From a virus (lineage: Duplodnaviria; Heunggongvirae; Uroviricota; Caudoviricetes), in the IMG/VR virus record IMGVR_UViG_2974603165_000001, positions 2,589-66,588 of that record: DNA of 64,000 nt; one strand, written 5' to 3'. The notes beneath the pieces are model-generated. The model made no database searches, was not told where the DNA came from, and saw only the letters and a program-made list of their open reading frames with translations. Positions 35,855 through 48,335 of the stretch are shown here, piece after piece (position 1 is the first letter of the stretch; the number at the start of each line of letters is the position of its first letter). The translations under genes and the position numbers were made by a program.

Positions 35855-38800
35855 TTATGTGGATGGTACAGTTACAATCGGAGTCATCGTGATGACAGAC
35901 CCTTTGATTGCGTTACACCAATCACCTGTGTTGATTTTTCCTTGGAACTGCGGCCCGTTAGTACCGTAGTAAGAAGAGTGCATGATCCCATCAACAATGA
36001 TTGTGCTGTCCTGGTCGAACAGTTCAACCGTCATTGCTCCAGAAGCCTGGGTAGAACGGGCAGACCCGATAGTACCGTCAGCTTTGGTGAAGTGCGCTCT
36101 CATGCGGAAGATGTCCGGCCCGATGTCAGTCAACGTCAGATCAACTTTAGCACCTGCTGGCCCTTGCAACAGGAGAACAGCAGAGAACTTATAAAGCATC
36201 GTGCTGTCAATTGTTGTCGTACCCGCAGTCATTGCGATTGTTGTCGCAGATGAAGCATTAAGACTGATCGTGTTAGTTAGCTGACCCGCTGTGAACACAG
36301 CCGCGCCGCCACCTCCACCAGAACCACCTGCTGGAACCGCCCAAGTTGCATCCTCACGGAGGAATTTGGTAGTACCTGCCGTTGCACCTGGATCAGGAGC
36401 CAGACCTGCTGCGTGTCCCGTACCGGACGCCTTCATAACAGCCGCTGTACCACTACCACCAACTGCTACCCAAGAAGTCCATGTTCCGTTGTTGTTGAAA
36501 CGGACATAGGTTGCCCCTGTGTCGTTGACGATACCCAACTGAGTGGCATATCCTGTCCCTGCTGGGATCATGATTCCTCGACCGTAAGAACTCGCCACTG
36601 GTGTGTTAGTGGAAGAGGCTCCCCAGTTAAAGAACTGACCTTTCGTCAGGGTGTTCAGGTTTGCAACTTCGTTGGTGTAAGTAGATCCGAAACCTAAAGG
36701 CTCGAACTGCTCACGAGTACGTGCTGGAGACATTGCCACCGTAGTGGATGTGCCTGCCTGTGCTTCCGCAGTGGTTGCAAACGTTACAGAACCTCCGCTT
36801 CCACCGGACGCCTGCGCCCATGCACCCCATGTACCATTTGTCTGGTAACGAATGAACATCAGATTGGAGTCATTCTCAATGGCAAGCTGTGTGACATATC
36901 CTGTCCCAGAAGGGATTGCGATACCACGACCATAGCCACCAGTTCCGGGGATGTTCAGGGTTGTGCTGGCATAGTTGAACAGATCGCCCGTCACAACGCT
37001 GTTCAGGTCAGTTGCCTGGGTTGTGAAGGAAGCTGTAAAACCATGTTTCTCCATGAACTCACGGGTTCTTGCCGGAGACATAACAACAGTGGTTGATGTT
37101 GCGGCTTGGGCCTCTGCTGTTGTTGCGAAAGTGACTGATCCTCCTCCTGTAACAGAGATAGTACCATCAGCCGCGATGCTAACACCAGAACCGATCTTCA
37201 CACCACCCAATACGGTTGCAGAAGCAATCGGTAAGGTGTATGAGGAACCTGACCCTGCTGGCCCACGGATGTTACCTACGGATGTCCAAGAGCCGGACGC
37301 CTTCTGATAAACGTTTCCGTTTGTAGAGGCAGTTGTGTCCGTTGTAAGAACCAAGTAGAGGTCGCCATTCTTCCCTACAGTTGAGGTTGGTGCGGCTGTA
37401 CCTGTGATCCAGACAGAACCTTGAAGGTTGGTGATAACACTCCAAGCGTTGGAAACCTTTTTGTAGACATCCAGAGCGGTTGTGTCAAGGTAGAAGTCAC
37501 CATTAGCTCCTGTCGCAGAAGCAGGTGCTCCTGACCCATTATACCAAGTTGAACCATTGACACCTGGTGTTCCTGCATCCCCTTTGAAAGGAATACCGTC
37601 TGACCAGTCCGCAGAGGTCGCTGAGTTTTTGATGTAAAGCAACCCGGTTGTTGTATCCAGGAATGCAAAACCTTTGGCCTCAGTGTCGTAGTTGTCACGT
37701 TCTGCTGTTGTACCCGTAGCATTCACAGTGAATGAACTACCCTGGAGAGAGGCAAGCCACTCTTGCTGCGTCATCGGTGTTTCACCTTCCGGCACAGTCC
37801 CCAGATAGATCTCATATGCAGAAGCGCCGGGAGCACCATCGTTACCGTCAGTACCTGGCTCACCTTGGAACTGCTGCCAAGCTGCCCATGTCCCGTCTGC
37901 ACTGTAACGGATGTACATGTTCCCTGCAACGTTCTCGATCACAAGTTGAGTAGCGTTACCTGGAGAAGTAGGCAGTACGATACCTCGCCCTCCGGCACCA
38001 GAAGTAGGAGCATTCTCAGCACCTGAACTATAGCTGAAACCACTACCAACAGTCACATCGTCGAGATCCGCCACGTTGGTCAGGGAGTCTGTCCCAATAC
38101 CGTACTGAGCCACAAAAGCAGCCATACCAGCAGGAGAGACAGCGATGTTGGTTGCCGTACCTTCAACCGCTTCTGCGTTAGAGGAGATAGCGTTCTTCCA
38201 AGCCGACCATGTTGTACCGGAAAGTACACGAGTCCAAGGAGAGGTCTCCCCATCAGGCCATGTGACTTGGGTAACATCTGTCGCTGTTTTTGCGATAGAG
38301 ACACCTTTACCAGAAGACCCGAGGATCGGTGTGTTTAAGGATGTCGCATCCCACACAAAGTTGTCGTTACCAACAACGGAGTCGAGATCCGCAGATACAG
38401 CAACAGTCCCAGCGGAACCGATATTGGTCAGGTCTACAACCGTCCCATCTCCCAGCAGGATTGTTTTGTCCGCAATCTGGAATGTACCGTGCAGTGTGGT
38501 GTCACCACCAACTTCCAATTTCTCGGTTGTTGTGATACTCTTTGGAGCGATGTCTTCACCATCAACAGAGGTCTGGATACCAGTAACTTCACCAAGGATT
38601 TCGAGATCCTGTACGGTCAGTTTTCCAGTAACGGCTGCATCTGTTGCAGATAAGTTGAAAATTGAAGCGTCACCTGTTACAGTGATGGTTGCAGCGTCAA
38701 TTTTTTCTGCGTTGATGTCTTGGAAGACTTTGAGGATCAGTGCGTTTACGAAAGCTGTAGTTGCAATCGAGGTGCTGTTGTCGTCATCGTCCATTGTTGG

Positions 38801-39223
38801 TGCTGTTGGCAGACCTGTGAAGTTAGGGCTGTCAATTGTCGCATACAGACCTGTCAGTGTCGCAGAGTCCAGAACTACACGCCAGTTAGAATCTGTCGCT
38901 GGGCTATCGCCCATGCTTACCGGGTTGGTAGCGGTGGCGCTCGGAGCGTACCACCAAGACACTGCGTTGGAGGTCGGTTCTGTAAAGGCGTACAGTTGGT
39001 TGAAGACCTGGGTAACACTCCCTTTCTGCCAGTCCAGCACCGGGGTCTTGTAATACAGGTTTTCCAACATCGCTTTACGCAGGGAGGGAATCAGACTGCC
39101 GTCTTCAACGGTGATAGTCTCTGCGGCGGTGCCGTTGATTACCTTGTGCATTCTCCCAGCATCAACAACCAACTGGTCAATTGCGTCACTGGTAGAAGAG
39201 TTGATTGTGGACATGTCGGACAT
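35855..39223 (-). CDS. long tail fibre (1122 aa)
   Basis: fibre N-terminus, short collagen-like segments, three knob-like repeats ending RY..GTW..W, two TFATTAEAQA..SPARTRE repeats. Confidence 0.85.
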   Translation of the reverse strand: MSDMSTINSSTSDAIDQLVVDAGRMHKVINGTAAETITVEDGSLIPSLRKAMLENLYYKTPVLDWQKGSVTQVFNQLYAFTEPTSNAVSWWYAPSATATNPVSMGDSPATDSNWRVVLDSATLTGLYATIDSPNFTGLPTAPTMDDDDNSTSIATTAFVNALILKVFQDINAEKIDAATITVTGDASIFNLSATDAAVTGKLTVQDLEILGEVTGIQTSVDGEDIAPKSITTTEKLEVGGDTTLHGTFQIADKTILLGDGTVVDLTNIGSAGTVAVSADLDSVVGNDNFVWDATSLNTPILGSSGKGVSIAKTATDVTQVTWPDGETSPWTRVLSGTTWSAWKNAISSNAEAVEGTATNIAVSPAGMAAFVAQYGIGTDSLTNVADLDDVTVGSGFSYSSGAENAPTSGAGGRGIVLPTSPGNATQLVIENVAGNMYIRYSADGTWAAWQQFQGEPGTDGNDGAPGASAYEIYLGTVPEGETPMTQQEWLASLQGSSFTVNATGTTAERDNYDTEAKGFAFLDTTTGLLYIKNSATSADWSDGIPFKGDAGTPGVNGSTWYNGSGAPASATGANGDFYLDTTALDVYKKVSNAWSVITNLQGSVWITGTAAPTSTVGKNGDLYLVLTTDTTASTNGNVYQKASGSWTSVGNIRGPAGSGSSYTLPIASATVLGGVKIGSGVSIAADGTISVTGGGSVTFATTAEAQAATSTTVVMSPARTREFMEKHGFTASFTTQATDLNSVVTGDLFNYASTTLNIPGTGGYGRGIAIPSGTGYVTQLAIENDSNLMFIRYQTNGTWGAWAQASGGSGGSVTFATTAEAQAGTSTTVAMSPARTREQFEPLGFGSTYTNEVANLNTLTKGQFFNWGASSTNTPVASSYGRGIMIPAGTGYATQLGIVNDTGATYVRFNNNGTWTSWVAVGGSGTAAVMKASGTGHAAGLAPDPGATAGTTKFLREDATWAVPAGGSGGGGGAAVFTAGQLTNTISLNASSATTIAMTAGTTTIDSTMLYKFSAVLLLQGPAGAKVDLTLTDIGPDIFRMRAHFTKADGTIGSARSTQASGAMTVELFDQDSTIIVDGIMHSSYYGTNGPQFQGKINTGDWCNAIKGSVITMTPIVTVPST

Positions 39224-40303: not shown

Positions 40304-40846
40304 TTACGGCGTTTTAGGCCATTCAGGGTCTTTTTGACTAATGTCAACCCGGTTAACAGTGATCATCAACTTTTCCAGATATTCCTTTTCCTGTCTCTCC
40401 TCTGGAGTCAAAGAACCATATTTCTCTGCGAGATTCAATGGCTCAAGGTGCTCCATCAGGGATCGGATAAGTTTTCTCTTCGTTTTGGTATTAGATTGTT
40501 TGACTTCCTCATCGCTAAGGACTAAACTCTCAAATTCAAAAGTGTTGATGTTAAAAATGTACTCGTTGTGAATACTGTAGGCTGTTTTTCCCTGCGGAAG
40601 TTTCTCAACAGGGATAACCACAACATCAAAAGAGCACTCTGGTGAGAAGGAGATCTCGGTTGCGTCCTCAGCCAGGCTGAGAATGCTACCCTCCTTACTC
40701 AGTAGCATCTTCACACCCTTCGGGAGTTCCTTTAGGATATCCGTCCAGAGGTTCCCCAACCCATCTTTGAATTGGGGGAATGCCAGTCTACTCTCACCCA
40801 TCTCCATAATCAGGTCATGGGAATAGTGAATGTCTTTGATTAACAA
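40304..40846 (-). CDS. tail fibre assembly chaperone
   Basis: C-terminal V..VDISQKDPEWPKTP; TTG start after GGAGG immediately following fibre stop. Confidence 0.7.
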   Translation of the reverse strand: MLIKDIHYSHDLIMEMGESRLAFPQFKDGLGNLWTDILKELPKGVKMLLSKEGSILSLAEDATEISFSPECSFDVVVIPVEKLPQGKTAYSIHNEYIFNINTFEFESLVLSDEEVKQSNTKTKRKLIRSLMEHLEPLNLAEKYGSLTPEERQEKEYLEKLMITVNRVDISQKDPEWPKTP

Positions 40847-40856
40847 GAAGCCTCCA

Positions 40857-41798
40857 TTATCTGGCGAGGGCAGTTGTGTAGGCAGCGGTCTGCCAGTTTC
40901 CATCAATGAGATACTGGAGAGGTCGGCTGTAGTAAGAACCATCATCCGCACCAAAGTCTCCACCGCCCGTAAGAACGTGTCCGTTTTCAAACTCAGCGGT
41001 CGGGCCACCTTGTCGTCTAAACACAGCCGCGCCGAAACGAATACCCATAATCCCTTGTGCTGGGAAGGTGATCGTGATGTTACCGTTCGCATCTGCGTTG
41101 TTGCCATTTACAGAACGGGCTACATGTTTCCCCGCTACAGTCGCACTGTTGTTGTTGACAACAAGGTTTGCAGTGGTTGTAGACCCTGCTACGGTTGCAT
41201 TACCTGTTGACTCAAGAGAGCCTCCACGCACAGTAGCTTGTGTCACAAGGGAACCGTTACCTGTGATAGTCAACCTTCCTGTCTCTGTCGTGCCATCAGC
41301 ATTTACGTTTCGGAAGACAAAGCCCCCGGCACCGCCGCCTTGGTTGTTGACAAAGAATGAAGCACCAGATCCGTTCGTTTCATTCCAACGAAGAATCAAC
41401 CCTTGTGTTGTCAGAGAGGTATTTGCTGATCCTGCGACCTTCAAACCACCAGACAGCGCACCACCCGTCAGTTGCAGGTAGCGGTCATCTGTCTCTGCTT
41501 TGGAGTAAACACCGAGGTTTTGGCGTGAAGCCGGAAGATCCATAAGATCAGACAGGCTTTGATTGCGTTGCAAGTACAGATTGCTCAGACCAGGTAGCTG
41601 TTCTTCCTGCATGTATTTCAGCCAAGAAGACAACATGAACCAGACGTAGTTCCATCCCTGTGCATCAGGTTTCTCGCCCATATCATAACCCTTATCCCAC
41701 AGGTCGCTGATCGGACGAATTTTATTTTTAGTCAAGGCATTAGGGAGGTCATAATCCTGTTCTGCCCACACTTCGATTTCGATATCCGGTTGTGCCAT
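40857..41798 (-). CDS. short tail fibre
   Basis: W.KGY..GEKP.AQ..N baseplate-anchor N-terminus; RSVNG..AD..GNI; RPLQYLIDGNW tip. Confidence 0.8.
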   Translation of the reverse strand: MAQPDIEIEVWAEQDYDLPNALTKNKIRPISDLWDKGYDMGEKPDAQGWNYVWFMLSSWLKYMQEEQLPGLSNLYLQRNQSLSDLMDLPASRQNLGVYSKAETDDRYLQLTGGALSGGLKVAGSANTSLTTQGLILRWNETNGSGASFFVNNQGGGAGGFVFRNVNADGTTETGRLTITGNGSLVTQATVRGGSLESTGNATVAGSTTTANLVVNNNSATVAGKHVARSVNGNNADANGNITITFPAQGIMGIRFGAAVFRRQGGPTAEFENGHVLTGGGDFGADDGSYYSRPLQYLIDGNWQTAAYTTALAR

Positions 41799-41808
41799 AA
41801 TGCCCTCG

Positions 41809-42162
41809 TTATACTGTTGTTAATACCGCGTCGCTGATGCTGATTACCGGAATTGGGCCTGCATCGGTTGTGTAGATCGTACACACCGCTCTGAGACGGG
41901 CGATTTTTGTGATGAGTTTTCGATATTTTGATGGGTTGGAGAGGTCGAGGAAGAACGTGATTGGAGGCGTTCCTTTCGGCTTTGTATACACATCAATAGG
42001 AATTTGTACCTGGACGGTACTGGCAGTCATGACGATTCGACCAGACTTTGCTACGTAATCGACTCCAGCTTTGGCTGTCCCATCCGTAGTCTTGTAATCC
42101 AGTGAACTCTCTTCTGCGAAGTTGTCCCTTGTGAGGGTAAAGATAGCTGTTACCGTAGCCAT
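41809..42162 (-). CDS. stand-alone Calx-beta domain protein
   Basis: DYKTTDGTAKAGVDY.AKSG, TFFLDLSNP; C-terminal ISISDAVLT strand. Confidence 0.75.
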   Translation of the reverse strand: MATVTAIFTLTRDNFAEESSLDYKTTDGTAKAGVDYVAKSGRIVMTASTVQVQIPIDVYTKPKGTPPITFFLDLSNPSKYRKLITKIARLRAVCTIYTTDAGPIPVISISDAVLTTV

Positions 42163-42172
42163 TGGTATCTCC

Positions 42173-42201
42173 AAAAAAGAGGGCGGTTACCCGCCCCTCT
42201 T
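42173..42201 (-). terminator. intrinsic terminator after GH48 gene
   Basis: GC stem (AGAGGG(G)CGG..CCGCCCTCT) + T run on minus strand. Confidence 0.65.
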
Positions 42202-42203
42202 GA

Positions 42204-44624
42204 TTATAGCTCGTCGTTGAAGTAACGGTGGAGAGCAGCAAGGCTGATTGCAAACTCGGACTGCGCCCAGAAACGGTGGTATCTGAACACTGGCGGAGTC
42301 GTGCTCGCCCCTGTCGCATATGCTGCCACTTCTGCCCATTTCGGGTCGTTATGCAAGAAGGTACGAAGCTCATGGAACTTAACACCACTCTTGATCTGCT
42401 CACCGTTAGGCATTGTACCAGTGAAGATCTCTGGAACGTAAACCTCATCAAAGAGGCGTTTGTAGCCTGGCTGAGGAGAGTCAATCGCCAGACCAACGTC
42501 ATCCACGTACAGGTTCCACATACGATCCAGCAGTTCTTTAGCGAACAGCATAGCTGTTTCTGCTGTGTGGTTTGTGCTCTTGATCTTGCTGGTGTACTTG
42601 CCAAGATTCTTTTTCGCTTTCGCGTAAGTGATCAGTAAGTATGCCAGGGATGAAGCAACACCCAGGTCAGTTGCATACTCAACAATAGAGCAATGCAGGT
42701 TCGGGTTAGGAACCGTTGACGCGTTCCAGAAGGATGCTTGGTTACCTGTCCCGTCCCAGTTCAGAGATGGCAGATATTCGTACACACCTTCATGGTTAGG
42801 CGTTGTAGCCGTCTGACCAACAACCTGCGTTGGAGAAACCCAAGACAGTGTACCAGGAAGCTGGAATGAACCGTCTGAGGTCAACGTAGAGTTGTTCAGG
42901 AACCACACCACTAATGGGTCAAGGATGATCTCCAAGTTGGCTTTCAGCGTCACAGCCAGTGGAGTCGTCTTGTCCGAAACCTCAAGGAACAGATCCGCAG
43001 TACGGCCCTGACCCCAAGTCTGGAAACCAACCCAGTCGTTAGACGGTGGATCGTGCCAAACCGGTGCGTAGGTATAAACCATTCCGTAGAACTTGGCGTT
43101 CTGACGACCATCGGTAGGTGTCTCGTAACGTGCGTTCCAGGAGTTAGTCACACCACCCGCTAATGGGCCTTCTGGTGATTGTAGCCAACGAAGCATTTCC
43201 ATCTGACGGTAGACAGAGCCTAACCAAATGTCAGAAGCACTTGGAGAGAGTGAAGTGAATCCACCACCACCAGTAGCCATGAAGTAAGCTGAGTCAATCG
43301 CTTGGTAGCCTTGGTGACACTCGGAAGAACCGATGCGGTAAGACCAAGAACCTGTAGCACCGGAAGCCGGAATCTCACCGCCCCATGCTGCGTACCAGTT
43401 TACCAGATAATGGCAACTTTCGTAACCCTTTCCACCAACTTGATTGTCTCCAATCTTGCGGAAATACTTATCAAACAGGTTGTAACGCATGTAGTCGCCC
43501 ATTTTCTTCGCTTTCGTAGTTGAAGCGGAGATGGTGGTTGACGCGCCCTGTTCGGTTGCAAACTTCTGCGCCCAGAATGACCACTGGATCGCACGGCCTT
43601 CTGCATCGGGAGCGTTAGTGTATGACCACTTCTTGCCCCAGTCGTTAGCTGCCGCTGGATACCACTGTGTACCTTGGGTGAATAATGGGTCATATCCGTA
43701 GATTGAACCACCGTTCGCAAAGTCGTTCCACGCCGGGTGAGTTACCGTCTCGAAAGAAGATTCCTGCATACCGCGTTCGTAGGTGTTGATGAAGACGTTT
43801 TGCTTCGTACCATCGCCGTTACGGAAGTTATACAGACCTTCAACATCCAGAATCCAGTGCATCAGATACATACGCTTGTTTCCATAAGTGGACTCAAGCT
43901 CATCTGCCAATGGATCGGCACCTTTCGCTGCTGTTGGGTCACCAAGTGTTGGGTAAACGCTTGGGGTATCCCCTTCCGGTGTATAGTCCGCTGGTGAAGA
44001 CGGTGTATACACAGCGATAGGCTGGTTAGTCGGAGAAGGTACATAGAACTGATCGATACGGTTCCATGCGTTGTTGTAGCCTGTCCAGTCCGCTGTTCCT
44101 AACTGACCAGTGACATATCCGTTCCATGCTTCCAGACCAACCCAGAAAGAAGCGGTTTCTGATACGGTTTCACCACCGTGGTCAGGCGCTTCGTTAATGA
44201 TGATGCTGTCTACACCCGGAATGTGTCGTGGCAGTGTACGTGCGTTTGCACCTGTCTGCGGCCCGAAGTATTTGTTATCTACGTTGTGGACTTTATCATA
44301 GATCGTTTTGAAACGTTCCAGATAGTTGATCGCCACCGGGGTGTCTGAACCAGGGATGGTTGCAGTACCGGATGAAGTCCCTAAGACCCCGTTAACCGGG
44401 GACGAAAGGACAACGTAGAAGTTGGTCTCTGTTTCTGCCGGAGCATCATCGTTGACCAAGACAATAATGTCTTTGGAGGTCTCACCTACCGCAAACGTTA
44501 CTGTCCCCGATTTAGCTGTGTAGTTATCAGGTGCTACCGCAGATCCGTCTTGAGTAGCATAGTTAACCGTGACCAGCGAATCGCTGGCCTGGTTAAGGGT
44601 TGTCTTGAATGTAGCCTGTCTCAT
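42204..44624 (-). CDS. Calx-beta + glycoside hydrolase family 48 (processive exocellulase)
   Basis: EAPDHG.ETVSE, MHWILDV, INTYERG.QES..ETV.HP, YTNAPDAEGRAIQ, HYL..WY.AWGG, H.GYQ, GG.TNSW, YHRFWAQ. Confidence 0.93.
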   Translation of the reverse strand: MRQATFKTTLNQASDSLVTVNYATQDGSAVAPDNYTAKSGTVTFAVGETSKDIIVLVNDDAPAETETNFYVVLSSPVNGVLGTSSGTATIPGSDTPVAINYLERFKTIYDKVHNVDNKYFGPQTGANARTLPRHIPGVDSIIINEAPDHGGETVSETASFWVGLEAWNGYVTGQLGTADWTGYNNAWNRIDQFYVPSPTNQPIAVYTPSSPADYTPEGDTPSVYPTLGDPTAAKGADPLADELESTYGNKRMYLMHWILDVEGLYNFRNGDGTKQNVFINTYERGMQESSFETVTHPAWNDFANGGSIYGYDPLFTQGTQWYPAAANDWGKKWSYTNAPDAEGRAIQWSFWAQKFATEQGASTTISASTTKAKKMGDYMRYNLFDKYFRKIGDNQVGGKGYESCHYLVNWYAAWGGEIPASGATGSWSYRIGSSECHQGYQAIDSAYFMATGGGGFTSLSPSASDIWLGSVYRQMEMLRWLQSPEGPLAGGVTNSWNARYETPTDGRQNAKFYGMVYTYAPVWHDPPSNDWVGFQTWGQGRTADLFLEVSDKTTPLAVTLKANLEIILDPLVVWFLNNSTLTSDGSFQLPGTLSWVSPTQVVGQTATTPNHEGVYEYLPSLNWDGTGNQASFWNASTVPNPNLHCSIVEYATDLGVASSLAYLLITYAKAKKNLGKYTSKIKSTNHTAETAMLFAKELLDRMWNLYVDDVGLAIDSPQPGYKRLFDEVYVPEIFTGTMPNGEQIKSGVKFHELRTFLHNDPKWAEVAAYATGASTTPPVFRYHRFWAQSEFAISLAALHRYFNDEL

Positions 44625-44635
44625 TGTTACTCCTC

Positions 44636-46825
44636 TCAGTCGGACAATGCCGGGGCGAGTAGATTCAGCTTAACAGTTTGAGGGGTTGTCCAGTTATCCT
44701 GAACCAGACCGCCTGTGTCTCCACTGTTAGGGTTGTAACACCAGTAGCTGTAAGAAATTCCTTTCTTCCCTGCTGCCAGGTCACGAACACCGTCGCCGTT
44801 AAAGTCGCCGTTCCAATAAGTGATCAGATTACTGAGCCATTGCTTCTCGTAAGTCGCATGAGGTTTGGTCAGGTTTCCAGATCCGTCAACACCGAAGTGT
44901 CCACCGAACTCTCCTACCCAAACTGGCGCAATATTCTGTGTGAAGATGTAGCCCCACATTGGTTCCCAAACACCGTACAGGTTAGAAGGCCAGTTCGCCG
45001 GAGGGGTCTGGTTATCATAAGCCAGCCAAGACTGACTTCCAACGCTTTGTCCATATTCGTGAGGGCTGTAAGCCACACGGTTAGGCTGCGTCAGAGTAAC
45101 CGGACGTGATGCAACACCTTGAAGTTGACCGCCCCACCAGTAGCTGACGTTGTTGTACTGACCGACACCTTCAACGAAGATGATCCAATCGGTAGTCACT
45201 GCGTGGATTGCGTTACCTGCTTGTTCAGCATAGCTCGCCCACGTTGACCAATCCAGATCGTGCGGTTCGTTATGAACGTCTGCCCCGATAACGTTGATTG
45301 CTGACTTGTAGCGTGTCGCAAGTTTCGTCCAAGAGGAAATCCACTGACTCAATGTGTAGCTTCCGTCAACCGGAGAGCCATCTGCCCCATCTCCCGCTGT
45401 ACGACGGTGGTGATCAAGGATAACATAAATCTCTTTCGTGTTGCAATAGTCGATGATGAGATCCAAGATCTCCAACGCCGTCTTGCCTACAAACTCAGAG
45501 TTTACTTCCCAATCGACTGCCGCTGTTGGTGGGTAAGGGTTGTTCTGCACCACCTCACCAGATAATGGGATACGGATCGTGTTGAATCCGAATGTCTTAA
45601 TCTGATCGATGATGTCTTTCCAGTAACGAGCACCGAGCCATGTTCCGTGAGGAGTATAGTTCGTACCTTCCATACCAAACCAGTTTACAGATTTGATGCG
45701 GAAATTCTCAGAAGTCTGGGTTGTTACAAACTGGTTTCCAGATGTCACCAGGCGCTGTAGTCCAACAACTGGGGCTGCTTCACCTACACCAGAAAGCGCA
45801 ACAGTCAATGAAGCTGCATGTCCGATTGTAGTGATCGCCAGGTTGCCAGAGACAATACCTACCGATTGTGGATTGAACACGATTGCCACGTCCGCAGTTT
45901 TGCGTGGGGCGATCACTGTTCCCGTTTGAGCGCTTCCAGAGGCAAGACTGTAGCCTGTAGGCAGCGTCAGTGTACCAATGGTCACATTCACATCTGTGTC
46001 GTTACTGATGGTCACAAGTTTACTCGCTGTTGGTGTTCCAACAATCGAAGAACCAAATGCCATAGTTAACGGAGAGATTGTTACACTATCAGCGGATTCT
46101 GTCAATACAGCATCAGAGATAGAGATGATAATGCCAACCGGAGGAATTTCAGAAGCATCGACGGTGATATCCTCGACAGAGACAGTCATGATGTAGCCTG
46201 TGTTCTCTTCATCGGAGGTGTAAACCAGTCGGGAGATCCCGCCTTGAGTGGTCTTTGTTTTATCAGCATTAACAGAGGAGAACCCAAAGGTGTCATCGTC
46301 TCCATTAAAACCGAATGCCCTTCCGTATGACTCAATCAAACGTAAGTGCGTTGGAAGAGGAAGCATGTCCTTGATTTCTTCAAGCAGGTCTTCCAGCTTG
46401 AAACAGGTTGACATTACATGGATGTCAACACGGTAATTCTCACCCTTCCAGGTGGTAAAGTTTTGGTCACCAAAGAGTTGACGGAGAGTCTGGATCACTT
46501 CCGGGCGTGTACCGTGCTTTGATGCACTCGCCAAAAGGATAGTGATCTGAGCACGATAGCTGTCATCGCCCATTCCGTTTCTGTCAACACCAAGTTGTCT
46601 ACCGATCTCATCCAGGTTCATGTACGTGGCGTTTGCCAGTAAACGACCCTCAGACAGCTTGACTAACATCTCATCAATCGCTTTAAGGCGATTCAGATAC
46701 ACACTTAGAAAAGTGGTGAGATTTTCCTTATCACGAAGGAAATCTCCAGGTAGGTAGTCAAGACCGTCTTGGACAAAATCTGGCAGCACATGAATGTGGT
46801 TGACATCCTGTAATGTATCTGCCAT
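44636..46825 (-). CDS. baseplate wedge-type subunit fused to Ig-like domain and GH5 endoglucanase
   Basis: N-term LD.IG..LG..R....D..YR..I (DUF2612-like); C-term VNWFGME..PHG, GFNTIRIP, LDHH, NEPH, YSPHEYG, GEFGG, YWCYNPNSGDTGG. Confidence 0.93.
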   Translation of the reverse strand: MADTLQDVNHIHVLPDFVQDGLDYLPGDFLRDKENLTTFLSVYLNRLKAIDEMLVKLSEGRLLANATYMNLDEIGRQLGVDRNGMGDDSYRAQITILLASASKHGTRPEVIQTLRQLFGDQNFTTWKGENYRVDIHVMSTCFKLEDLLEEIKDMLPLPTHLRLIESYGRAFGFNGDDDTFGFSSVNADKTKTTQGGISRLVYTSDEENTGYIMTVSVEDITVDASEIPPVGIIISISDAVLTESADSVTISPLTMAFGSSIVGTPTASKLVTISNDTDVNVTIGTLTLPTGYSLASGSAQTGTVIAPRKTADVAIVFNPQSVGIVSGNLAITTIGHAASLTVALSGVGEAAPVVGLQRLVTSGNQFVTTQTSENFRIKSVNWFGMEGTNYTPHGTWLGARYWKDIIDQIKTFGFNTIRIPLSGEVVQNNPYPPTAAVDWEVNSEFVGKTALEILDLIIDYCNTKEIYVILDHHRRTAGDGADGSPVDGSYTLSQWISSWTKLATRYKSAINVIGADVHNEPHDLDWSTWASYAEQAGNAIHAVTTDWIIFVEGVGQYNNVSYWWGGQLQGVASRPVTLTQPNRVAYSPHEYGQSVGSQSWLAYDNQTPPANWPSNLYGVWEPMWGYIFTQNIAPVWVGEFGGHFGVDGSGNLTKPHATYEKQWLSNLITYWNGDFNGDGVRDLAAGKKGISYSYWCYNPNSGDTGGLVQDNWTTPQTVKLNLLAPALSD

Positions 46826-46835
46826 GCTATCCCCA

Positions 46836-48335
46836 TTAAGTAATCTGTTGGAACAGGATGTTTGTCGTGTCGAGAGCAAACACTTCACGCATTCCCAATG
46901 TAACGTCCGCAGTGGTGTACGCAGTCGTTGGTTCAGAAGCCTTCTTCACTTGAGCCACAAGCTGTGTGAAGCGCCCTGCTGCCAACGATCCGGCTACAGC
47001 AGCGATCAACTGGATGTTGTACAGAGTATCAGCAATGCTGAGTCCGTCTGTCATCGTCTTAATCGCTGAACGAATTGAATCCTGTTCGGTGGATGAAAGC
47101 GTCTTACCCTGGTATTTGATCAGGATGTTGTAGTTAGTCGCTGCCGCTTTACTGTGGTAAATACGCTCAACACCATCATCTTCTGTGGTGATATCATAGA
47201 ACGTGTTTCCGTAAGTGGCGTTTGACAACGCAATCGTGTTGTAAAGTGCTTTGCTGATCTCCTCGGTCACACCGCCGTAAACAACTGTCTCGAACTTGTA
47301 TTTCGGGACGCCGTATTGGTCACGTTGGTCGGTGTTGTTCGCGAAAATCTTAACCTTCTGGACACCATCCACATTCAGCAGTGCCGAGATAACCGCAGGT
47401 CTTGTGGCTTTGGATGCCTCTGAGGTGATGGAGGATGCACGAAGTTTGTATTCGTTATCCGTCTCAACATCTGTACCAGATGCAAAGGACTCTGAGTTGT
47501 TCAGAGACAGGAAGCCGCTTGGTGTAGGGGAGATCTGTGTAACTGTGTTCTCTTCACGAGACAGTACGCCAGCCTCTACCGCAACAACCTCAAAGGATAA
47601 CGTCCTTGTTCCCACAATAGGTGAGGATCGGAAGTCGATACGACTGTTCAGACCAACAAACTCCTTAGCGGAGTTGTAACCAATGTACAGTGCTCCAGCG
47701 GCGGAGTCAATGTAAATCAGGTCAGAGTTTAAGTCTGTTGTGTTCGTAACGATAAAGTCTTTGATTGAGGACAGGAACGTGTTAAGTTCTGCTGAACCGG
47801 GTGTTTTGTTACGCAGTGTCAGAGACAAGCTCTTCATTGCATTGTCTGCTGAACTCAGGATCTGGAAGGTGTATTTACCCAGAACCAAATCGGAGTTGAG
47901 GATCTGCTGTGCAACAACGGAGCCTGCTACGGTTGCGTTACCAGTCAGTACGAATGTTCCGTTGTCAACGGTGAAGGAATCTGGTGTGTAGATAAGGTTG
48001 TATGGAACAGTGGTGTTCACTGTCATCTCAATCGTACCTGTGCTCTTGGTCTTACCGCGACGATAAATACCACGACGGCCCAGAAGCTCGTCAAGGTAGA
48101 TACCTTCGGCACCCGCCAGAGTCCCAGAGGTGAAGATCGCTGCTCCAAGCAGGATCAGTTGATATTCACGTTCATTCAGGATCGTTGTCAGCTTGTCGAT
48201 CACAGAGTTTGACTGGGTGTTGAAGGTTTCCCCGAAAGCGGCGATCAACATTGTCTTCGTGTCGGAGATCAGTGTATCAAGTGCGGGAACCTTGAAGCCG
48301 TAGTCGTTCAAACCATAGGTGTTTTGATCGGCCAC
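46836..48335 (-). CDS. baseplate J-like wedge protein
   Basis: G..LD....GI.R, G.DVETD.EY..R, AL..VDGV..V..F.N motifs. Confidence 0.9.
   Translation of the reverse strand: MADQNTYGLNDYGFKVPALDTLISDTKTMLIAAFGETFNTQSNSVIDKLTTILNEREYQLILLGAAIFTSGTLAGAEGIYLDELLGRRGIYRRGKTKSTGTIEMTVNTTVPYNLIYTPDSFTVDNGTFVLTGNATVAGSVVAQQILNSDLVLGKYTFQILSSADNAMKSLSLTLRNKTPGSAELNTFLSSIKDFIVTNTTDLNSDLIYIDSAAGALYIGYNSAKEFVGLNSRIDFRSSPIVGTRTLSFEVVAVEAGVLSREENTVTQISPTPSGFLSLNNSESFASGTDVETDNEYKLRASSITSEASKATRPAVISALLNVDGVQKVKIFANNTDQRDQYGVPKYKFETVVYGGVTEEISKALYNTIALSNATYGNTFYDITTEDDGVERIYHSKAAATNYNILIKYQGKTLSSTEQDSIRSAIKTMTDGLSIADTLYNIQLIAAVAGSLAAGRFTQLVAQVKKASEPTTAYTTADVTLGMREVFALDTTNILFQQIT

Follow-up and report, generated by a model that had tools for sequence, protein, structure and literature searches.

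A probable split Calx-beta joint for mounting cellulases on the baseplate of a Hena1-like Erwinia myophage

Introduction

How does a tailed phage hold on to its enzymes? The way in which receptor-binding enzymes are attached to phage tails decides, of course, which modules can be exchanged, whether in nature or by an engineer. The question is raised by a gene cluster in 64,000 nucleotides of DNA (the whole stretch analyzed, called here the window) from a Hena1-like Erwinia myophage. Here, a baseplate wedge protein is fused to a predicted cellulase of family GH5. The next gene encodes a predicted GH48 cellulase that opens with a Calx-beta domain, and a small gene after it encodes a second such domain. 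Both domains start late, and what they lack is found in other genes.

The initial annotation of the region had proposed that the pieces belong together, so that a strand carried by one polypeptide completes a domain carried by another. The comparisons reported below make it probable that three genes encode a split Calx-beta plug and socket, by which cellulases are mounted on the baseplate.

The gene cluster and its parts

The features of the cluster are collected in Table 1. All of the strand-A peptides that had been quoted for positions 41809-46190 are present, on the minus strand. In short form, the candidate donor peptides are TVSVEDITVDASE and ISISDAVLTE.

Table 1. Features of the cellulase cluster (positions in the window)
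Feature	Positions	Strand	Basis or remark
Wedge-Ig-GH5 protein	44636..46825	-	729 aa
Wedge-1 domain, residues 1-212 of the 729-aa protein	46190..46825	-	Homology to phiTE wedge 1 protein
Donor strand D1, MTVSVEDITVDASE, type I orphan Calx-beta strand A	46148..46189	-	Matrix score and homology
TVSVEDITV (in D1)	46160-46186	-	Residues 214-222 of the 729-aa protein
Donor strand D2, IIISISDAVLTES, type II orphan strand A	46094..46132	-	Matrix score and recurrence
ISISDAVLTE (in D2)	46097-46126	-	Residues 234-243 of the 729-aa protein
Ig-like domain (ASH / choice-of-anchor D type), residues 248-350	45776..46084	-	Pfam TMEM131_like_N, Cep192_D4, ASH
GH5 cellulase domain (predicted)	44723..45694	-	Pfam PF00150, E 2.1e-45
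GH48 gene	42204..44624	-	Protein start MRQATFKTTL
Type II socket (Calx-beta without strand A), GH48 residues 1-92	44349..44624	-	PF03160, E 8.8e-15
GH48 catalytic domain (predicted cellulase)	42207..44324	-	Pfam PF02011, E 7e-195
Intrinsic-terminator-like hairpin and T run, between GH48 gene and small gene	42180..42197	-	Sequence
Type I socket (Calx-beta without strand A), small protein residues 1-98	41869..42162	-	PF03160, E 8.9e-9
Donor strand D3, PVISISDAVLTTV then stop, type II orphan strand A, extreme C-terminus of small protein	41812..41850	-	Matrix score
ISISDAVLTTV then stop (in D3)	41812-41844	-	C-terminus of small protein
Short tail fiber, 313 aa, outside the Calx-beta system	40857..41798	-	Context only

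[quoted passage not shown] It also matches phi92 gp146 (E 1.2e-17) and shares 55% identity with an rV5-like wedge protein. In the phiTE structure, the wedge 1 protein is present in one copy per wedge (PMC11972413). The Ig-like domain that follows is modeled by AF2 with a pLDDT of 96-98. Pfam places the two enzymes in families GH5 and GH48, and both are predicted to be cellulases.

The small protein, 117 aa long, begins MATVTAIFTL at an ATG at 42162 (-), with a GGAG ribosome-binding site upstream. The hairpin and T run on the 3' side of the GH48 gene are also kept in a third Hena1-like phage (locus L030). Beyond the small gene, the short tail fiber, with the N-terminus MAQPDIEIEVWAE..LPN, matches the short tail fibers that follow wedge 1 in phages Mydo, CR8, and P7_Pc.

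Calx-beta domains that lack their first strand

In the whole genome there are only two Calx-beta domains, the N-termini of GH48 and of the 117-aa protein. GH48 matches PF03160 with 55.2 bits and the small protein with 35.8 bits, against a cut-off of 27. Of the 119 profile positions, however, only 35-100 are aligned by the first and 25-102 by the second. Because the alignments begin only at positions 35 and 25, strand A is absent from both domains. Alignment with canonical Calx-beta domains likewise has both proteins begin at strand B, just as the initial annotation had read them, and neither holds a complete seven-strand Calx-beta sandwich in a single chain.

Might the starts simply have been placed too late? 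An upstream start that restored the strand would have undone the whole proposal. In the GH48 frame a stop codon precedes the start by 15 codons, and in the frame of the small protein by 8, so no upstream start could restore strand A. The residues between these stops and the two starts bear no likeness to that strand.

AF2 models the small protein with six strands, and the model matches the CBD1 structures of Calx (3rb5, 3gin, 2dpk) with E about 1e-6 and a TM score of about 0.65. This modeled fold, of fair confidence and with no partner, suggests a different reading, in which the Calx-beta domains need no strand A: six strands might be enough for a stable fold, and the modules would attach to the virion, or act, by other means. 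The strand-A peptides elsewhere would then be scars of shuffling, or linker or spacer strands, and it is in those peptides that this reading meets its difficulties.

Relatives of the small protein are few. Only two homologs have a similar length, and a locus search with the small protein alone returned only Hena1. When both sockets were used in an exhaustive profile search, the only matches were giant bacterial multi-Calx proteins, which are uninformative about phage N-terminal sockets. In a tree of sockets, two clades are separated with 100/99 support, and these agree with the two types of donor strand described below. The GH48 socket falls in the clade that contains all phage GH48 N-termini. 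The small-protein socket clusters with the N-termini of phi92 gp142-like fibers, again with 100/99 support.

Orphan strands in neighboring genes

From 250 bacterial Calx-beta domains we derived a position matrix for strand A (consensus PTLSVSDASVVEG), with which the 147-kb genome was searched in all six frames. Against a background with a mean of -6.5 and a standard deviation of 4.0, the top three of 178,854 windows are D2 (12.7 bits), D3 (12.5), and D1 (12.2), under a matrix that also gives moderate scores to the first strands of ASH-type Ig domains. All three fall in this gene cluster. Thus, the strand that the sockets lack does occur twice in the linker before GH5 and once at the C-terminus of the small protein, as had been claimed from inspection. 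Scars of shuffling would not remain the top strand-A peptides genome-wide in several lineages.

D2 and D3 also resemble each other. The peptide ISISDAVLT, noticed earlier as identical in two genes, is one of only two 9-mers common to different open frames of at least 80 aa in the genome. Its nine residues are the same in D2 and D3, yet 9 of the 27 bases differ, and both serines have switched between TCT and AGC codons. The pair is therefore not a recent DNA duplication, and scars would not hold identical residues across this many base changes. The ISISDA core recurs in six of the seven type II donors from three Hena1-like genomes; the seventh has ISLSDA.

D1 has different relatives. The rV5-like wedge protein, whose gene directly precedes that of a fiber with a Calx-beta domain lacking strand A, has a C-terminal tail, ...TIYCESITVNATRQEG*, that aligns with D1. 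In AF2 models D1 and D2 have a pLDDT of 51-61 beside the confident Ig domain, and neither has secondary structure; within their own chain they are disordered. Insertions of the D2 type (PTLSISNAVIE and similar) are found in phage GH5 proteins and are absent from bacterial tandem Ig arrays.

D3 is best understood by comparing the small protein with tandem Calx-beta arrays. The protein corresponds to strands B-G, a linker, and then strand A of the following domain, and D3 ends just before the canonical EG. This invites the thought that the small protein is a circular permutant that places its own C-terminal strand in its own groove, leaving only the wedge strands to dock. A linker of about nine residues tethers the strand to the domain, and AF2 gives the last seven residues a pLDDT of 84. 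In the same model, however, which was built on an alignment with rows from tandem arrays that may bias the tail away from folding back, DSSP assigns no strand to residues 97-117. The tail is also a type II donor, the type that goes with GH48, and the socket of the small protein is type I; the tail is aligned with strand A of the next domain in tandem arrays; and the homolog in L030 carries two tandem donor strands at its C-terminus, that is, D3 duplicated. A self-complemented monomer, which the initial annotation had itself offered as an alternative, thus seems improbable, and the tail of the small protein is better seen as a plug for another chain.

Tandem duplication is not peculiar to that tail, since another GH5 protein has three tandem donors; scars would not be duplicated in this way. 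A role for the tandem donors as trimeric beta-helix or shaft repeats was considered and rejected, since wedge 1 is a single copy per wedge and the peptides fit the Calx-beta strand A consensus.

Recurrence in other phages

An orphan strand in a gene adjoining one for a domain without strand A is also found in N4-like, GP4/SU10-like, and jumbo phages. In the N4-like phage phiEaP8, the top strand-A match of the genome lies in the GH5 gene, which adjoins a GH48 gene starting MRQARF. At loci L021, L023 (a 360-kb jumbo phage contig), L024, L026, L028, L029, and L031, donors lie in the gene beside the socket gene.

The rV5-like and phi92-like coliphages carry the strand as a tail at the very C-terminus of the neighboring protein. 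The 958-aa protein of phiWec188 and PD06-like phages has the C-terminus ...TIKDVTVDATE*, after which come the ribosome-binding site of its neighbor and MKQATF. L028 and PEp14 have small fiber proteins with a donor-like strand at the end. The C-terminal donors stop 0-2 residues past the canonical Glu, that is, in the A-B loop, and scars would not end so exactly. Some of the proposed donors are weak: the P0293 repeats, PEp14 gp20, and the wedge tail of the rV5-like phage have scores of only about 5 bits and are assigned by where they lie and by homology. For the PEp14 sockets there are two uncertain candidates, FSVKIGDVAISEP, which lies in a 119-aa protein, and LLLNITDAKLEGQ, at the C-terminus of gp20 (5.2 bits).

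Co-occurrence can be followed in the wedge proteins themselves. In Mydo, CR8, and P7_Pc, wedge 1 is 209-214 aa long and has no donor; the adjacent gene is a short tail fiber, and there is no socket gene. In rV5-like and Hena1-like phages, donor and socket are both present. Scars would not be gained and lost along with a socket gene. The numbers of donors and sockets do differ in several loci, as self-sufficient modules would allow: three donors and two sockets in the present phage, and, in L023, L024, and L029, two to three donors for every visible socket. Any figure for the stoichiometry is thus guesswork. Even so, it is unlikely that the sockets are self-sufficient and the strands incidental. 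Every comparative test that was run supports the proposal that orphan strands complete the sockets in trans and would thereby dock GH48 and the small protein.

A junction in one lineage suggests how donor and socket could be joined within a single polypeptide instead. The rV5-like wedge protein, with the end ...ESITVNATRQEG*, overlaps the start of the gp142-like fiber, and its stop and the fiber start share TAATG, where a shift in frame would yield a normal A-B loop again. Recoding of this kind, whether by frameshift, read-through, or bypass, would give an intact domain. But some 500 codons separate D1 and D2 from the stop of their own gene, D3 lies after its own domain, and the GH48 and small genes each have their own Shine-Dalgarno sequence, with a terminator between. 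In phiWec188 there is a TAA stop, with an AGGAG ribosome-binding site and a spacer of 8 nt. These signals in phiWec188, and the in-frame stops above both socket starts, led us to reject recoding as a general explanation; it is very improbable indeed.

A proposed mechanism

How might such a joint work? The mechanism would begin with the wedge-1 protein, expected once per wedge and six times per virion, which is extended by a flexible segment bearing D1 and D2, then by the Ig-like domain and the GH5 endoglucanase. The Calx-beta sandwiches of GH48 and of the 117-aa protein, lacking strand A, should leave an open edge or groove. The groove of each socket would be filled in trans by the orphan strand of another polypeptide. 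The shortened domains, the identity of the orphan strands, their company with sockets in several lineages, and their disorder in cis are observations; from these we infer physical binding, its pairing specificity, and its stoichiometry.

The pairing is probably specific, judging from the agreement of donor types with socket clades: D1 with the small protein, D2 and D3 each with a GH48. D1, of type I, would have its origin in the tail at the C-terminus of rV5-type wedge proteins, and would take the small protein, itself presumably a truncated socket of the phi92 gp142 type. D2 and D3 are of type II, which appears to be the type of every phage GH5 protein with a GH48 gene after it, and each would take a GH48. 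The small protein, with its type I socket and type II plug, would therefore be an adaptor: once seated on a type I plug, it would offer one more plug of type II. Because its own plug and socket differ in type, a homopolymer is not expected; given specific pairing, it would be an extender and not a filament former. The predicted load per wedge is up to two GH48 and one GH5.

A wider reading is favored by a slight balance of the evidence. Here, a Calx-beta domain split at its A-B loop, in at least two specificities, would be a portable system by which unrelated tailed phages (rV5- and phi92-like myoviruses, N4-like and GP4/SU10-like podoviruses, and the phage of the 360-kb jumbo contig) hang enzymes on their virions and branch via adaptors. 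The same system would explain how fibers of the phi92 gp142 type are attached to the wedge.

Significance

If true, phages would dock their fibers in a new and very compact way, with a strand of 10-13 residues recruiting any protein whose truncated Calx-beta domain matches it. This would explain the attachment of gp142-type fibers in phi92- and rV5-like phages, and would account for the GH5 and GH48 pair moving as a unit between Erwinia podoviruses and myoviruses. The engineer, too, would gain a simple handle, with which virions could be loaded with enzymes or proteins assembled non-covalently. Our search of the literature on Calx-beta in tail fibers, tailspikes, or depolymerases, and on strand complementation in phage tails, found no paper on split Calx-beta docking.

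Comparison with known systems

Chaperone-usher pili and TasA fibers (PMC9674648) are built on the same idea, an Ig-like sandwich made without an edge strand, which another polypeptide then provides. They have very stable non-covalent joints and allow chains of subunits. The likeness to pilus donor-strand exchange that the initial annotation drew thus stands in principle, but not in detail. Pilins lack the C-terminal G strand and receive an N-terminal extension, whereas the phage domains lack the N-terminal A strand and their donors would be C-terminal tails or internal linkers. Pilins also need a periplasmic chaperone and an usher, whereas assembly of the proposed phage system would be cytoplasmic. 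Among the locus genes examined (Pfam on six proteins, and the Hena1 annotation of their neighbors), there is no chaperone or usher gene; these are baseplate, fiber, and hydrolase proteins only.

A GH5 and GH48 gene pair is also known from Erwinia phage S6, where gp094 is a GH48 with an N-terminal Calx-beta domain, gp095 is a GH5, and cellulose is the first receptor (PMC9544554). The gene pair and the N-terminal domain are thus the same, and the related N4-like phiEaP8 has a donor in its GH5 protein. In the S6 paper, the Calx-beta is called only a Na+/Ca2+-exchanger-type domain, with no mention of a docking role, a missing strand, or an orphan strand (PMC9544554). Unlike S6, the present phage has the cassette fused to a myovirus wedge protein and has an extra adaptor protein.

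The lateral tail fiber of the phi92 gp142 / rV5 type carries a PNAG-deacetylase domain (bioRxiv 10.64898/2026.04.02.716166). In the cryo-EM work on phi92, fibers I and II are unresolved and gp142 is not mentioned (PMC13450770). These fibers resemble the small protein in having an N-terminal Calx-beta socket of its clade, and the wedge-protein tail, homologous to D1, would be their partner strand in rV5-like phages. They differ in what comes after the socket, which is an enzyme in gp142 and only a second plug in the small protein.

Branched adaptors of receptor-binding proteins, such as TSP2/TSP4 of CBA120 and gp66-gp63.1 of G7C, have N-terminal modules that let a virion-bound protein carry more enzymes, giving a multivalent adsorption apparatus. 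These modules are complete folded domains of trimeric tailspikes, and no domain is split over two chains.

Last, there is the cellulosome. The three proteins have no Pfam match to cohesin or dockerin at E up to 0.1. As in a cellulosome, a GH5 endoglucanase and a GH48 processive cellulase would be held on one scaffold. Here, however, the joint would be a split Calx-beta domain, and the scaffold would be the baseplate of the virion.

Gene order in the window

The region is the baseplate and tail-fibre operon of an Erwinia myophage (147-kb source record) with ~80% DNA identity to phage Hena1, a member of the Vequintavirinae. Its features are collected in the table, together with those of related loci.

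Features of the operon in the window and of related loci
Feature	Position	Strand	Remark
Wedge 2 (Baseplate_J)	46836..48335	-	First in gene order
TGNATVAGS in wedge 2	47919-47945	-	
Wedge 1 + Ig-like domain + GH5	44636..46825	-	One 729-aa protein
GH48	42204..44624	-	806 aa
Terminator-like GC-rich hairpin + T run	42180-42197	-	Between GH48 stop and small gene's ribosome-binding site
Small Calx-beta protein	41809..42162	-	117 aa
Short tail fibre	40857..41798	-	
TGNATVAGS in short tail fibre	41181-41207	-	
267-aa open frame	40304-41107	-	~250 nt overlap with short tail fibre gene
Tail fibre	35855-39223	-	1122 aa
L030, Tail_spike_N + Peptidase_S74 gene	L030:2679-5309		876 aa; between sheath initiator and wedge 2
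L030, small protein	L030:11656-12045		129 aa
L028, GP4/SU10-like podovirus contig	L028:6001-14319		Balanced set: 2 donors, 2 sockets
L031, P0293	L031:1275-3311		GH5 protein, three tandem donors
L032 (rV5-like), wedge 1 stop/gp142-like fibre start	L032:4998-5003		Overlap as TAATG

The hairpin is kept in L030, a 145-kb contig from a third Hena1-like phage, and may reduce expression of the small protein and the downstream fibre genes relative to wedge-GH5 and GH48. The additional 876-aa gene of L030 is not found at the same place in Hena1 and has no counterpart in the window's list of open frames. Because the 267-aa frame overlaps the fibre gene, and its Hena1 homologue, annotated as a tail fibre assembly protein, has 166 aa, its true start is probably an internal ATG. 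The 1122-aa tail fibre carries repeated modules, each starting GGSVTFATTAEAQA.TSTTV.MSPARTRE and followed by a domain of ~100 aa; at least two copies are near-identical.

Calx-beta domains that start at strand B

The Pfam Calx-beta alignment begins at profile position 35 of 119 in GH48 and at 25 of 119 in the small protein; a whole-genome search found no Calx-beta domains beyond these two. Here, a start codon placed too far downstream might, of course, explain the missing strand A. An in-frame stop, however, lies 15 codons upstream of the GH48 start and 8 codons upstream of the small-protein start, the intervening residues bear no likeness to strand A, and each start has a Shine-Dalgarno sequence of its own. 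Thus, both domains truly start at strand B, as the initial annotation had claimed.

Orphan A strands elsewhere in the genome

A profile was built from 250 complete bacterial Calx-beta domains, including the 18 residues that precede strand B (consensus AAPTLSVSDASVVEGDSGTTTATFTVTLS). The 13 columns covering strand A served as a scoring matrix for the entire genome in all six frames (178,854 windows, mean -6.5, sd 4.0). The top three windows were IIISISDAVLTES (12.7 bits), PVISISDAVLTTV (12.5 bits) and MTVSVEDITVDAS (12.2 bits). These are the three peptides picked out in the initial annotation, all of which lie where they were reported: D1 (TVSVEDITV) and D2 (ISISDAVLTE) in the linker of the wedge-GH5 protein, and D3 (ISISDAVLTT) at the C-terminus of the small protein. 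The fourth window (10.8 bits) is on the opposite strand, away from the Calx-beta cluster.

Only two 9-mers, one of them ISISDAVLT, are common to different open frames (at least 80 aa) of the genome. Between the two copies of ISISDAVLT, 9 of 27 bases are different and the codon family is switched at both serines; this, in turn, means that the identity is kept at the protein level. The other 9-mer, TGNATVAGS, is in contrast nearly alike in DNA (4 of 27 bases differ).

AF2, run on wedge residues 196-360, gave no secondary structure to residues 196-235 (D1 with the first part of D2; pLDDT 51-61) or 236-245 (the rest of D2; pLDDT 71), and pLDDT 96-98 to the Ig domain that follows. D1 and D2 are thus predicted to lie outside any fold in cis.

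Against tandem Calx-beta arrays, the alignment of the small protein runs through strands B-G, the inter-domain linker and then the next domain's strand A, and the protein ends immediately ahead of the canonical Glu-Gly. It might therefore be asked whether D3 folds back to complete its own domain. AF2 predicts six strands in a Calx-beta fold (Foldseek match to CBD1 structures, E ~1e-6) and assigns no strand to residues 97-117. This counts weakly against self-complementation, since the model's alignment included tandem-array rows. Two observations count against it more strongly: the tail is duplicated in L030, and tail and socket are of different types, as described below.

The same split in other phages

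Hena1 and L030 retain all three donors and both sockets (the domains without strand A). The L030 small protein ends in two tandem donors, VISISDAVIG and VISLSDAVITTVP (...PVISISDAVIGPLTSTVISLSDAVITTVP at the stop), which suggests that the number of GH48 sites could grow through duplication of a 12-residue unit.

PTLSISNAVIETS (13.2 bits) outscores every other strand-A window in the 76-kb genome of phiEaP8, an N4-like podovirus. It sits in a GH5 protein whose gene lies directly 5' of GH48, which here starts MRQARFTVTL. The donor is present in nearly all phage-type GH5 homologues as an insertion ahead of the last Ig domain; the insertion was not found in the bacterial tandem Ig arrays compared with them. 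The genes downstream begin with a strand-A-less Calx-beta in L021, L023, L024, L026, L028, L029 and L031; in L021 and L024 that gene is GH48, and L023, a 360-kb contig, has two tandem donors. One L028 donor lies in a GH5-alginate lyase protein, and the other forms the C-terminus (...LSVSSVAVEDI) of a fibre protein of 123 aa; the L028 sockets are on a 772-aa protein and on GH48. P0293 of L031 runs from an Mtd_N fibre head through one complete Calx-beta, three orphan strands (ISISDGVLG, ISIADGVLG, ISIEDGILS) and Ig to GH5, and is followed by GH48 with a strand-A-less socket.

The split also occurs with fibres like gp142, which is known as the NGR-binding deacetylase fibre (bioRxiv 10.64898/2026.04.02.716166). 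In phi92-like coliphages (phiWec188, PD06-like), a 958-aa protein terminates ...LTVLTIKDVTVDATE; then come TAA, an AGGAG ribosome-binding site and the gp142-like socket, MKQATFTVTR. One rV5-like Vequintavirus has a wedge 1 of 228 aa, 55% identical to the window's wedge domain, with a tail, ...TTTIYCESITVNATRQEG, that aligns with D1; its end overlaps the gp142-like fibre, which begins MATAVFKPYRD. The TAATG overlap in L032 is typical translational coupling of plug and socket genes. No C-terminal plug stops more than two residues from the canonical Glu of the A-B loop.

In the related genera of Mydo, CR8 and P7_Pc, wedge 1 (209-214 aa) ends directly after the wedge domain, without a donor, and the short tail fibre follows with no socket gene in between. 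The solved phiTE wedge 1 likewise has only 214 aa; it is present as a single copy per wedge and binds the short fibre (PMC11972413). Plug and socket, together in some genera and both missing beside the wedge domain in these three, have thus been gained and lost jointly.

Two types of donor and socket

A maximum-likelihood tree built from 21 sockets has two clades (support 100/99). The small proteins of all three Hena1-like phages fall in one of them with the gp142-like fibre N-termini; the other takes in every GH48 N-terminus and all remaining sockets. The adjoining donors sort into matching types. Type I, ..[EK]D[IV]TV[DN]A[ST]..., includes D1 and the rV5 wedge and gp141-like tails; type II, ..[IL]SIS[DN][AG]V[IL]..., includes D2, D3 and the podovirus GH5 donors. 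By homology, then, the small protein would be the partner of D1, and GH48 that of D2 and D3. The small protein would thus be a gp142-type socket in which a second plug has taken the enzyme's place, an adaptor supplying one extra GH48 site. Donors outnumber visible sockets in several loci (three against two in the window), and some donors match the canonical matrix weakly.

A probable split-domain docking system

In phage S6, for which cellulose is the published first receptor, GH48 (gp094) has an N-terminal Calx-beta and GH5 is gp095; the paper assigns the gp094 Calx-beta no role (PMC9544554). In the phi92 cryo-EM study, fibres I and II are not resolved and gp142 is not mentioned (PMC13450770). 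Our literature search found no paper on split Calx-beta docking, and sequence searches of the PDB with a GH48-type socket profile and an rV5-like gp142-type fibre retrieved no structure of a phage Calx-beta socket.

The initial annotation proposed that separately encoded A strands dock GH48 and the small protein onto the baseplate wedge. Comparative evidence supports this: the split recurs in numerous independent contexts, its halves are gained and lost jointly, and their types match. Split Calx-beta is thus probably a docking system that works by fold complementation, with binding, pairing and stoichiometry all inferred. Such docking is related in principle to donor-strand complementation.
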